Below are positions 35,494-40,557 of a stretch of 41,409 nt of DNA, piece after piece; the first letter of the stretch is position 1, and each line of letters starts with the position of its first letter. Under the pieces are notes generated by a model. The model had not been told where the DNA came from, made no database searches, and saw nothing but the letters and a program-made list of their open reading frames with translations. The DNA lies in UHGV virus genome UHGV-0177896; one strand, 5' to 3'. Made by a program: the position numbers and the translations under genes. This DNA is from a virus.

Positions 35494-35589
35494 TGAAAAC
35501 CTCCGATGACAATTTTAAACACACCTTGTGTTATATGGTCAAGCTGTTTTGTGTTTTATGTAAATCACGATTCGTGATACAAGGATGCA
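35494..35589. promoter_or_regulatory. Divergent immunity control region with candidate operators
   Basis: 96-bp gap between divergent HTH genes. Holds the dyad AACACA-CCT-TGTGTT (35518..35532), a second TTGTGTT (35549..35555) and the perfect 15-bp palindrome ATCACGATTCGTGAT (35564..35578). Confidence 0.55.
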
Positions 35590-36308: not shown

Positions 36309-36527
36309 ATGGTTGGTGAAGATCTGGTTGTTATTAACGGTCAATTGTGCAGCAAAGATGTGGCAGCCATGCTTATTAGCAAGGTTCTTCCAACTGTGCT
36401 GGAGGTCATTGCAGAAAAAGTAAAGGCTGGTCGTCCAGACAAGGAAGTTGAAGAGGCGGCAAAAACAGTTGTTCATGCCGCTACAGAAGCAATTATTTTG
36501 AAGAGCCTAGTTTCGCCCAAGCCTTAA
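36309..36527 (+). CDS. Hypothetical small protein (72 aa)
   Basis: ATG at 36309 with an AAGGGG SD 7 nt upstream. First ORF downstream of the promoter at 36106. Confidence 0.45.
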   Translation: MVGEDLVVINGQLCSKDVAAMLISKVLPTVLEVIAEKVKAGRPDKEVEEAAKTVVHAATEAIILKSLVSPKP

Positions 36528-36687
36528 GTGAATCGGCGCTTTTTTTAGCATCACGTTCATTGAGTAATGACAAAAACTCATTCTCAGCATTCTCGATTTC
36601 CGAGAAAAATTCTTGATGAGTTGTTTCTCGCTGCGATCTGATGCTGAAAGCTAAAGCAAGTAGCCAGGCTTTGTCTTTATTATCCAT
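36493..36687 (-). CDS. Hypothetical small protein (64 aa), opposite strand within the early-left region
   Basis: ATG at 36687 with a weak SD. Convergent with, and overlapping, the 3' end of the 36309..36527 ORF. Uncertain. Confidence 0.3.
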   Translation of the reverse strand: MDNKDKAWLLALAFSIRSQRETTHQEFFSEIENAENEFLSLLNERDAKKSADSLKAWAKLGSSK

Positions 36688-37083
36688 AGGAATACCTTAT
36701 TACTGGTTGTGTGAGAACTCCAGTATACCACCGAGCCTGAAGTGGTAAAAAGACAGGCGCACAACACGAAGGCGCATTTCCGGTATTCATAAAGAGTCGG
36801 TCTTGTCTGTTAAATTTAAATGGTGGGAGTGCGCCTCCGGTTGTAAATAACGACAATTGCTATGTGTAGTCTTTGGCGGCATCAGTTCTACTCCGTGGCT
36901 GCCCTGCCGCCCCTTTTTAAAGTGAATTTTGTGATGCGGTGAATGCGGCTAAGCGCACGCAGCACAGTTAAAAGCATCAGTGTTATGGGTGGATTATCCG
37001 GCGTTAATTGTTAACTGGTTAACGTCACCTGGAGGCACCAGGCACCGCATCGACAAAATTCATTTGTAAAAATGGAGATAATT

Positions 37084-37305
37084 ATGATTGCTCATCACTT
37101 CGGAACTGATGAAATACCACGTCAGTGTGTGACCCCTGGCGATTATGTTCTTCATGAAGGTCGGACATATATCGCCTCGGCAAACAATATTAAAAAGCGA
37201 AAACTTTATATTCGTAGCCTGACTACAAAAACATGCATTTCTGACTGCATGATTAGAGTCTTCCTCGGTCGTGATGGTTTACCTGTAAAGGCGGAGTCAT
37301 GGTAA
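37084..37305 (+). CDS. kilR: KilR-like cell-division inhibitor (73 aa)
   Basis: [46 protein letters not shown]... matches my recollection of Rac KilR. ATG at 37084 with GGAG 6 nt upstream. Confidence 0.6.
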
Positions 37306-37475
37306 TGACTAAGAAAATAAAATGTGCTTATCACCTTTGCAATAAAGAAATTGAAGAAAGCAAAATCATTACAAGACCACTTCATTTCATGCGTGGAGTT
37401 ATACCAACGACGGAAATGAAAAAATATTGTAGTGAAATCTGTGCCGAAAAAGACCAGATGGCACACGAACTTTAA
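37305..37475 (+). CDS. ydaE: YdaE-like small Cys-rich (zinc-binding) protein (56 aa)
   Basis: Hand-translated: [56 protein letters not shown]. Four Cys in a C-x4-C...C-x3-C pattern. Below ORF-track cutoff. Confidence 0.5.
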   Translation: MTKKIKCAYHLCNKEIEESKIITRPLHFMRGVIPTTEMKKYCSEICAEKDQMAHEL

Positions 37476-37923: not shown

Positions 37924-40557
37924 ATGAGCACCGATAAACAAGTTTACCCACTGTATTACGAAGCAAAAAATGACAAAGTAAGAAAACGTCTCGGTATTAA
38001 AGGCGGTTTCTACTGGGCTGAAGCGAAAAAATTATCCATTGCCATCTCCCGTGGTGCTGTTGCGATTGACGATGCTGGCTACGATGAAGATGACTTTAAA
38101 AAACCTGTTCGCGTCAATTTGCCCGTTGTTGATGACCTTCCACCAGAAGGCGTATTTGATACGGAATTCTGCAACCGTTACGAAAAAGGCGGGGAAGATG
38201 GCATCACAATGGTATTTATCGCGCCCTCATCCTCTGCGCAGGACAAACCAGCCAGCACTGACAATACCAATGTTAATGGCGAAGACATGACGGAGATTGA
38301 GGAGAATATGCTACTCCCGATTTCCGGTCAGGAGCTGCCCATTCGCTGGCTTGCTCAACACGGCAGCGAAAAACCGGTAACGCACGTTTCACGCGACGAA
38401 CTACAGGCATTACACATTGCACGAGCTGAAGAACTACCAGCTGTTACTGCCCTGGCTGTTTCCCACAAAACCAGCCTGCTCGACCCGCTGGAAATTCGCG
38501 ATCTCCACAAACTGGTGCGTGATACTGACAGAGTTTTCCCTAATCCAGGCAATTCAAGCCTGGGGCTGATGACTGCTTTTTTCGAAGCATACCTGGACGC
38601 AGACTACACCGATCGCGGTCTGCTGACAAAAGAGTGGATGAAAGGAAATCGTGTTTCACGCATCACGCGCACGGCTTCCGGCGCTAATGCTGGCGGCGGG
38701 AACCTCACCGATCGCGGCGAAGGTTTCGTTCACGATCTGACGTCACTGGCGCGCGACGTAGCCACTGGCGTACTGGCTCGTTCAATGGACGTGGACATTT
38801 ATAACCTTCATCCGGCACACGCTAAACGTGTCGAGGAAATTATCGCTGAAAATAAACCACCCTTTTCTGTTTTCCGCGACAAATTCATCACCATGCCTGG
38901 TGGGCTGGATTATTCCCGCGCCATCGTGGTTGCGTCCGTAAAAGAAGCACCAATTGGGATCGAGGTTATCCCCGCACACGTCACTGAATATCTGAACAAA
39001 GTACTGACTGAAACTGATCATGCCAACCCTGATCCAGAAATCGTGGATATTGCCTGCGGTCGTTCCTCTGCCCCGATGCCGCAGCGTGTAACAGAAGAAG
39101 AAAAACAGGATGATGAAGAAAAACTGCAACCATCTTGCGCAATGGCAGATGAACAGGCAACGGCTGAAACAGTGGAACCGGATGCAACTGAACATCATCA
39201 GGACACGCAGTCGCTGGATGCTCAGTCACAGGTAAATTCTGTTGATGCGAAATATCAGAAACTGCGGGCAGAACTCCATGAAGCCCGGAAAAACATTCCG
39301 CCCAAAAATCCTGTCGATGCAGACAAATTACTGGCTGCCTCTCGCGGAGAATTTGTTGAAGGGATTAGCGACCCGAACGATCCGAAATGGGTTAAGGGGA
39401 TCCAGACTCGCGATTCTGTGTACCAGAACCAGCCAGAAACGGAAAAAATCAGCCCGGATGCGAAACAACCTGAGCCAGTAGTGCAACAGGAACCGGAAAT
39501 AGTCTGCAATGCCTGCGGTCAGACTGGCGGGGATAACTGCCCTGACTGTGGTGCGGTGATGGGCGACGCAACATACCAGGAAACATTCGGTGAAGAGAAT
39601 CAGGTTGAAGCTAAGGAAAAAGATCCGGAGGAAATGGAAGGCGCTGAACATCCGCACAATGAGAATGCTGGCAGCGATCCGCATCGCGATTGCAGTGATG
39701 AAACTGGCGAAGTCGCAGATCCCGTAATCGTAGAAGACATAGAGCCAGGTATTTATTACGGAATTTCGAATGAGAATTACCACGCGGGTCCCGGTGTCAG
39801 TAAGTCTCAGCTCGATGACATTGCTGATACTCCGGCACTGTATTTGTGGCGTAAAAATGCCCCCGTGGACACTACAAAGACAAAAACGCTCGATTTAGGA
39901 ACCGCTTTCCACTGCCGGGTACTTGAACCGGAAGAATTCAGTAACCGCTTTATCGTAGCACCTGAATTTAACCGCCGTACAAACGCCGGAAAAGAAGAAG
40001 AGAAAGCGTTTCTGATGGAATGCGCAAGCACAGGAAAAACGGTTATCACTGCGGAAGAAGGCCGGAAAATTGAACTCATGTATCAAAGCGTTATGGCTTT
40101 GCCGCTGGGGCAATGGCTTGTTGAAAGCGCCGGACACGCTGAATCATCAATTTACTGGGAAGATCCGGAAACAGGAATTTTGTGTCGGTGCCGTCCGGAC
40201 AAAATTATTCCTGAATTTCACTGGATCATGGACGTGAAAACCACAGCGGATATTCAACGATTCAAAACGGCTTATTACGACTACCGCTATCACGTTCAGG
40301 ATGCATTCTACAGTGACGGTTATGAAGCACAGTTTGGCGTGCTGCCAACTTTCGTTTTTCTGGTTGCCAGCACAACTGTTGAATGCGGACGTTACCCGGT
40401 TGAGATTTTCATGATGGGCGAAGAAGCAAAACTGGCAGGCCAGCAGGAATATCACCGCAATCTGAGGACCCTGGCTGACTGCCTGAATACCGATGAATGG
40501 CCAGCTATTAAAACGTTATCACTGCCCCGCTGGGCTAAGGAGTATGCAAATGACTAA
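37924..40557 (+). CDS. recE: Exonuclease VIII (RecE), full length (877 aa)
   Basis: C-terminal domain matches the RecE nuclease region as I recall it ([25 protein letters not shown]...[22 protein letters not shown]). Followed by and overlapping recT. No internal stops. Confidence 0.85.

Follow-up and report, generated by a model that had tools for sequence, protein, structure and literature searches.

A DicF small RNA gene, a probable RNase III processing stalk and an STnc100-like core in the leader upstream of kilR in a Rac-type lambdoid prophage

The ORF-free interval located 5' of kilR (36688-37083, + strand) in the UHGV virus genome UHGV-0177896, whose 41,409 nucleotides are referred to here as the window, encodes a full-length, bona fide DicF sRNA gene. 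The interval as a whole probably constitutes the leader RNA of the early-left kil-recET operon of a Rac-type lambdoid prophage, in which DicF is combined with an RNase III processing stalk and an STnc100-class core.

The genetic context of this leader is typical of Rac-type prophages. As the initial annotation had stated, the interval lacks any ORF of at least 60 aa; the largest one, of 58 aa, is located on the minus strand (36680-36856). Of the genes that follow the module, kilR comes first (37084-37305, + strand, ATG at 37084, 73 codons); it is preceded by the Shine-Dalgarno (SD) sequence GGAG (37074-37077) and aligns with kilR of E. coli K-12. In Rac-type prophages, the product of this gene is an inhibitor of FtsZ. 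According to the ORF list, the + strand continues with a ydaE-like ORF (37299-37475), an ORF in the position of racC between the ydaE-like ORF and recE, and recE itself (37924-40557). On the other side, the interval is bordered by a 64-aa ORF on the minus strand (36493-36687), with a promoter-like site (TTTACC-16-TATACT, with TG, 36749-36722). This position is held by SieB in the K-12 Rac prophage; identification of the 64-aa ORF as SieB was rejected, and the ORF matched no Pfam family either. A prophage of E. coli AVS0790 carries the same region with 100% identity, and its RefSeq record places a helix-turn-helix repressor/cro pair upstream of the interval and the genes kil, YdaE family, recE, recT, ralR, xis and int downstream. 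The identical kilR locus is named kil in this record, with the note 'Rac prophage Kil protein', and zero features are annotated across the region equivalent to 36688-37083. For the gene at 37084-37305 of the window (L333, 6397-6618), RefSeq calls the kil product 'cell division protein FtsZ', a name also carried by the phage record PQ600364, which is a propagating annotation error in which an inhibitor has been named after its target. Elsewhere in the window, a full-length sok antitoxin RNA (RF01794, 28951-29125, minus strand) scores 118 bits against a gathering threshold of 59, and this match indicates a hok/sok-type toxin-antitoxin locus in another part of the prophage.

The DicF gene (36861-36918, + strand) comprises a single-stranded 5' end, a stem-loop and an intrinsic terminator. 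In a whole-window Rfam scan, the DicF family RF00039 matched positions 36861-36912 over its entire model (1-52 of 52) with 60.9 bits, above the gathering threshold of 48, and with an E-value of 4.5e-11. The stem previously described as terminator-like is formed by GGCGGC (36875-36880) and GCCGCC (36906-36911) and is followed by CC-TTTTT up to 36918; a terminator scan scored a site with a T-run at 36895-36910. Together, RNA folding and the terminator scan reveal the stem-loop and the Rho-independent terminator at the 3' end that characterize DicF. A small RNA gene had been among the options proposed initially, and this option proved right, the hairpin being the DicF sRNA that had gone unrecognised. 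A contig scan with a DicF core pattern proved insufficiently specific, most of its matches being random; those of use were L024, L056, L061 and a few others.

In K-12, DicF represses the translation of ftsZ by an antisense mechanism that requires Hfq. Its dependence on Hfq, its 5' processing by RNase E and the inhibition of cell division upon its expression have been documented (PMC5069750, PMC10448788). The loop of the window DicF keeps the sequence ACUCCG, complementary to the SD sequence of ftsZ. Full-length sRNA-ftsZ duplex energies did not separate from those of shuffled sequences, and a local loop-SD calculation was used because of this lack of discrimination. The local duplex reached -17.7 kcal/mol for the window DicF (35 of 500 shuffles equally good) and -16.5 kcal/mol for K-12 DicF (17 of 500), and the KilS value of -12.2 kcal/mol did not improve on that of shuffled sequences. 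Retention of ftsZ targeting by the window DicF is thus only mildly supported by these modelled duplexes.

The comparison with KilS, an ncRNA (b4833) annotated directly upstream of kilR in K-12, places this gene in a broader evolutionary setting. KilS was discovered by RIL-seq and confirmed by northern blot, with a mapped start at K-12 position 1418502 and an RNase E site at 1418471 (PMC8175672, supplement file 6). When the window is aligned with K-12 Rac, KilS occupies exactly the position of DicF and ends at the same terminator, and against the DicF model its last 56 nt at the 3' end reach 39.1 bits, short of the threshold of 48. Judged by this alignment, KilS turns out to be a degenerate paralogue of DicF; the KilS paper nowhere mentions DicF. 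Homology to the KilS start would place a transcription start at 36823 (+ strand), behind a -10-like TAAATT at 36811-36816, and the 52 nt upstream of 36823 are near-identical to K-12 Rac. The counterpart of the RNase E site at K-12 1418471 would lie near 36854; in KilS, this site is found 6-7 nt before the DicF-equivalent 5' end.

Upstream of DicF, a long hairpin (36762-36844, + strand) with the lower stem CAACACGAAGGCGCAUUUCC / GGGAGUGCGCCUCCGGUUGU was identified. Its predicted energy is -33.3 kcal/mol (z = -5.04), none of 300 shuffles was as stable, and it is kept in K-12 Rac. This hairpin can form only in transcripts whose start lies farther 5', and at the DNA level the KilS-type start is situated inside it. 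In the data of Gordon 2017, the kilR-sieB spacer contains a position, K-12 1418510, with 0/0 wild-type reads versus 41 in the rnc mutant. This peak of rnc/wild-type coverage corresponds to about 36815 in the window, in the apical part of the hairpin. A group of phages referred to here as L126-type, with a similar upstream flank, has an STnc100-like core in the slot of this hairpin.

Downstream of DicF, the interval contains a helix of about 26 bp that most likely serves, as its features and homologues suggest, as an RNase III processing stalk by which DicF is parted from the kilR mRNA. An inverted repeat had been noticed here initially. Its first arm, GTGAATTTTGTGATGCGGTG, is present at 36922-36941 as reported; its partner, CACCGCATCGACAAAATTCAT, is likewise present but actually occupies 37043-37063, a shift of one base to the left relative to the position first assigned. 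The arms are separated by 101 nt and are indeed near-perfect inverses, the mismatches being a bulged G37052 and one G-T position, and the short palindrome TTAACTGGTTAAC noted between them (37011-37023) forms the tip of an internal hairpin (37000-37026). In the RNA fold, pairing extends over a 5' arm (36914-36941, + strand), which starts in the terminator U-tract and contains GTGAATTTTGTGATGCGGTG, and a 3' arm (37043-37071, + strand; CACCGCAUCGACAAAAUUCAUUUGUAAAA) with the bulged G37052, and is interrupted by one bulge and one 2x2 internal loop. A gap-free repeat finder reported only the outer part of this repeat because the bulged base interrupts it. The structure is more stable than chance would give: 36913-37075 folds at a predicted -61.3 kcal/mol (z = -5.15), a stability that 0 of 200 dinucleotide shuffles reached. 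In the read-through RNA, pair probabilities reach 0.93-1.0 in the central stalk, and the DicF terminator hairpin coexists with it at 0.97-0.99.

The same block is found between dicF and dicB in the K-12 Qin prophage and between kilS and kilR in K-12 Rac. Homology to dicB-type loci stops directly after the 3' arm, beyond which the copies diverge, continuing with kilR, with dicB, with an ORF of 282-292 aa followed by kilR, or with a 94-aa YdaE-like gene. The hairpin located directly 5' of the stalk also varies: in 54 distinct copies it is that of DicF, that of KilS or any of three or more further variants. These copies of the DicF-linked subfamily were obtained by a second pattern scan and aligned. 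Across this alignment, 97.7% of cells are paired, compared with about 40% after the partners are shifted by 1-3 columns; the covariation analysis proposed initially upholds the structure. Five pairs show changes on both sides, in 22 cells (0 of 500 shuffles), and the double-sided changes in the stalk extension include U-A to C-G and U-A to G-C. In the extension, covariation is confined to 2 of 13 pairs, since the 5' arm hardly varies: its sequence CCCTTTTTAAAGTGAATTTTGTGATGC is identical in 40 of the 54 distinct copies, while the flanking RNA parts vary freely. This invariance exceeds what pairing explains and suggests a constraint at the sequence level. Many one-sided changes are C to U or A to G and keep G-U pairs on the + strand only; the opposite strand would carry A-C mismatches, which indicates that the selected structure is the RNA of the kilR strand. 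The helices of the core are 98.5-99.7% paired, with two compensatory pairs in 37000-37026.

The core enclosed by the stalk (36942-37042, + strand) consists of an AAU linker, a hairpin at 36944-36961, variable hairpins in the middle and two further hairpins at 37000-37026 and 37028-37042. A permissive-threshold Rfam search aligned RF02076 (STnc100) to 36902-37091 over the complete model (1-206 of 206) with 41.3 bits, below the gathering threshold of 47; the E-value was 6e-8 when 271 nt were searched and 1e-5 for the whole window, and only two non-canonical pairs were flagged. Homologues score similarly, with 34.4 bits for K-12 Qin, 28 bits for K-12 Rac and 43 bits for phage P7. The motifs GGUGAAU (36938-36944) and CACCNGGAGGCACCNGGCACC (37026-37046) of STnc100 are both present, and the closing stem covaries. 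By these sequence features, the core is best described as a divergent, sub-threshold relative of STnc100. It possesses neither a promoter nor a terminator of its own, being preceded by the DicF terminator and directly followed by the kilR SD sequence.

STnc100 is a prophage-associated RNA, with 11 annotated and expressed copies in EHEC EDL933, one of them verified by northern blot; in Stx2 phages, one copy is located 75 nt after stx2B. A 2026 preprint proposes common ancestry of STnc100 with the Hfq-bound PasD sRNAs. The last hairpin of the core (CCUGG-AGGCA-CCAGG, 37028-37042, + strand) is invariant in the family, and a pattern scan of IMG/VR for it returned at least 120 loci. All matches listed share the arrangement NNNN-GGUGAAU ... 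CACCNGGAGGCACCNGGCACC-N'N'N'N', and most of them are canonical STnc100 elements scoring 52-161 bits, often in tandem arrays beside tRNA genes. Among 94 distinct elements from the matches listed, the closing-stem positions 1-4 outside GGUG/CACC are paired in 97, 95, 82 and 67% (0 of 1000 shuffles each) and show several pair types, and pairing is not general beyond them. In the window and in all members, the invariant hairpin displays an SD-like GGAGG, of which one half belongs to the stem and the other to the loop. Arrays of five or six canonical STnc100 copies in tandem beside tRNA genes were found in the IMG/VR contigs L134 (2265-3380) and L199 (4349-5513), and they suggest that the family acts in tRNA-like processing or punctuation. 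In phage P7 (L123, 2304-2616), the STnc100-like core (43 bits) is flanked by tRNA genes on one side and, on the other, by ban operon genes, which are terB/tciB-like and described by the term 'inhibition of cell division'; a tRNA-Sec-like match located directly before this core remains below threshold (46.6 bits vs 47).

Long stalks are not a general property of this family. Among the 124 distinct members found in the matches listed, extensions of 17-25 bp occur only behind a DicF-type terminator, and all others measure 0-12 bp. The proposal that all operon-embedded cores carry long stalks was rejected, as copies of the P7 type have about 5 bp; the long stalk is therefore a feature of one lineage together with one analogue, rather than a repeated solution. 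The analogue is provided by the L126-type phages (22 distinct contigs), in which an STnc100-like core with an 8-bp stem is followed by a DicF-like terminator hairpin, a 25-bp stem and an ORF. This stem is non-homologous to the stalk of the window, begins at the U-tract of a DicF-type terminator and is predicted at -53.6 kcal/mol (z = -5.3). The presence of two unrelated long helices at the same place suggests that the double-stranded stalk itself matters. In these phages, the 3' hairpin of the Rfam STnc100 model is matched to the DicF-like hairpin (43.1 bits), and terminator hairpins of STnc100-class genes may have been the source of DicF-type sRNAs.

Several published observations connect this region with RNase III. 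A 72-nt form of DicF with a 3' end made by RNase III was described by Faubladier in 1990, as cited in later papers (PMC5069750, PMC9438474). Projected from this cited length, the end would lie 19 nt after CCGCCC, at about 36932, which is central in the 5' arm and faces the bulge, and the partner cut would fall near 37054/37055 in the 3' arm. In Table S1 of Gordon 2017 (NC_000913.3), position 1649470 in the dicF-dicB spacer has 0/0 wild-type reads versus 26 in the rnc mutant; it is flagged as a known site, the signal consisting of 26 reads at coarse resolution, and it maps 8 nt inside the homologous 5' arm. A 2009 review counts the intergenic regions of dicA-dicF-dicB among RNase III substrates. 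A 2023 study of dicBF describes an RNase III site only 5' of DicF, so the literature is not uniform. The enzyme accommodates about 22 bp and makes staggered cuts with 2-nt overhangs, usually with a G-C pair between them (PMC6212723). With 26 bp, the stalk exceeds the required stem length of at least about 22 bp, and the pair G36931-C37054 adjoins the predicted cut, which fits the rules observed in vivo.

These elements can be assembled into a processing model. DicF would probably start at the KilS-type internal promoter (~36823), or be excised from longer transcripts, and would end at its own intrinsic terminator at 36918. Read-through of this terminator would produce an element of about 158 nt, whose ends could pair, from the U-tract onwards, into the 26-bp helix enclosing the STnc100-class core of about 100 nt with its multiple hairpins. 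A staggered double cut by RNase III near 36932 and 37054 would then generate the 3' end of a longer, 72-nt-type DicF, free a structured RNA of about 120 nt, and leave the kilR mRNA with a leader of about 30 nt.

Other functions of the stalk and core have to be weighed against this model. A structured 5' leader controlling kilR had been suggested initially; its structural part stands, as the + strand RNA structure is conserved, but a riboregulator specific to kilR is the less favoured reading, because the module also precedes dicB and two other unrelated genes, and this distribution favours an RNase III processing stalk. A cis-acting role in which the stalk and core set translation or stability of kilR, for instance with the SD sequence sequestered until cleavage or refolding, is somewhat unlikely. 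It would agree with the end of the stalk only 2 nt ahead of the GGAG, with the predicted pairing of the SD G's in the read-through RNA (unpaired probability 0.03-0.08) and with attenuation of entry into kilR by the upstream DicF terminator. RNase III cleavage of phage leaders is moreover able to alter translation, as in the N leader of lambda. However, the same arms stand before dicB, the 282-aa ORF and the YdaE-like gene, whose ribosome-binding regions differ; the core also exists as stand-alone genes with promoter and terminator and in tandem arrays; and computed SD accessibility in uncleaved and cleaved RNA showed no clear direction for kilR, the SD sequence of the predicted cleavage product being not clearly more open. 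Control of kilR is compatible with the processing stalk as an added consequence. The core may instead be a functional RNA of the STnc100/PasD class, acting in trans or binding a protein, which the stalk serves to excise as a third product; this is a somewhat improbable alternative. Canonical STnc100 elements carry a strong TTGACA-N17-TAAATT promoter a few nucleotides before the closing stem and terminators after it, STnc100 is expressed in EHEC with one northern-verified copy, PasD, reportedly related to it in structure and ancestry, is an abundant Hfq-bound sRNA in EPEC, and the loop sequences are invariant across the family among the matches listed. On the other hand, K-12 RIL-seq-derived lists contain no RNA from the dicF-dicB or kilS-kilR spacers, no STnc100 has a known target or partner, and the subfamily of the window has a diverged first hairpin and a score below the Rfam threshold. 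A still more specific proposal, that the spacer linking a DicF-type sRNA to the opening gene of Rac/Qin-type early-left operons encodes an unrecognised sub-threshold branch of STnc100/PasD excised by RNase III as an RNA of about 120 nt, is speculative and rather unlikely; if true, it would add an unannotated third product of the dicBF/kil operon in most E. coli genomes.

A role at the DNA level, as a linker for modular recombination between lambdoid prophages or as half-sites for a protein, is quite unlikely. Identity of the 5' arm in 40 of 54 copies with variable neighbours, the abrupt loss of homology beyond the 3' arm, where no fewer than four different genes follow, and the rare, recombinant-looking combination of a Rac-type 5' leader, a DicF loop and kilR in the window all speak for it. 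Against it, the G-U-compatible substitutions pair in the + strand RNA only, compensatory pairs exist, and a non-homologous stem fills the same position in the L126-type phages. The protein-binding DNA site proposed initially is disfavoured by this preservation of G-U pairs and by the lack of a convincing operator motif: a search comparing the repressor/cro region with the interval returned one 12-mer with one mismatch, a weak motif of which about 0.09 are expected by chance, and the oR palindromes are absent from the interval. The 12-mer, TGTAAAT(C/A)ACGA, recurs just before DicF (36842-36853), and two palindromes found between repressor and cro (35518-35578), AACACACCTTGTGTT and ATCACGATTCGTGAT, are likely operators. 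A linker role could coexist with a role of the RNA. Finally, a put-like RNA for processive antitermination in prophages lacking N is extremely unlikely. The element opens a long early operon, in prophages in which no N gene is recognisable, and some family members directly follow strong promoters, but it is located after the DicF terminator rather than before it, and tandem arrays beside tRNA genes do not fit. Homology to putL/putR of HK022 was rejected, the HK022 genome containing neither the conserved hairpin nor the pair of core motifs. An RNase III processing stalk between DicF and the kilR mRNA remains the preferred reading of the interval.

The module is widespread in E. coli. It was matched at least in part in 4,624 of 5,426 complete genomes and also in 39 phage records, with the block of homology in the genomes stopping at query position 377, which corresponds to window position 37064 in the 3' arm. 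The K-12-like version with KilS and kilR is represented by about 1,800 genomes, with most of the query covered at about 85% identity, and the combination of a Rac-type leader with an intact DicF is restricted to at most about 130 records at 95% identity or higher. Copies of the DicF module about 89% identical to those of E. coli were also observed in MT713136 (Aeromonas phage AP1) and PP818812 (Actinobacillus phage vB_Apl-pPE4); the hosts given in these records are not enterobacteria, and the copies may stem from contamination or a chimeric assembly, or the hosts may be mislabelled.

DicF, KilS, STnc100 and an RNase III site after DicF were already known. The assignment of the spacer to the STnc100 class, the recognition of KilS as a paralogue of DicF and the occurrence of one module ahead of several genes appear not to have been stated before. 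Current understanding is not overturned by any of these findings, which rather show that an intact DicF and a conserved structured RNA have been left unannotated in RefSeq records of this prophage type, and that the link between KilS and DicF was missed by the discoverers of KilS. In the prophage, an RNA that inhibits translation of ftsZ is combined with KilR, a protein inhibitor of FtsZ, much as DicF is with DicB in Qin, and the terminator-stalk-core module looks like a common control and processing unit ahead of toxic genes. By tying the RNase III site after DicF to STnc100/PasD, the analysis offers a testable biochemical context for an orphan family.

The organization of this leader can be compared with several known systems. 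RNase III acts on the flanking stems of pre-rRNA, the N leader of lambda and sites in T7 early mRNA. Like the stalks of 16S and 23S pre-rRNA, the helix of the window comprises at least about two turns, is formed from the flanks of a structured RNA and belongs to a polycistronic transcript; it differs from them in that cleavage of the window copy is deduced through homology to the K-12 Qin helix. In common with STnc100 and PasD, the core has a closing stem of the GGUG...CACC type whose outer pairs covary, an AAU linker, the hairpin CCNGG-AGGCA-CCNGG that is invariant in the family, and a location in prophages, but its first hairpin is GCGGCUNAGCGCACGC instead of the canonical CCCCCUGUGCGGAGGGG, and its closing stem extends to about 26 bp instead of about 8 bp and is fused to a DicF-type terminator. 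The KilS locus in the 5' UTR of kilR in K-12 Rac is homologous including its flanks, with a near-identical start region and the same terminator, stalk, core and kilR; it has another hairpin loop, whereas the slot in the window holds an intact DicF. The body of DicF from K-12 Qin (RF00039) is kept apart from three substitutions in the stem-loops, and the same terminator and stalk are present, with one base different in the 5' arm. The first ~12 nt of K-12 DicF, which pair with xylR (PMC5069750), are replaced in the window by the Rac/KilS-type UAUGUGUAGUC. In both prophages, DicF is positioned directly 5' of a gene for a cell-division inhibitor in a lambdoid setting, the gene after the module being dicB in Qin and kilR in the window.
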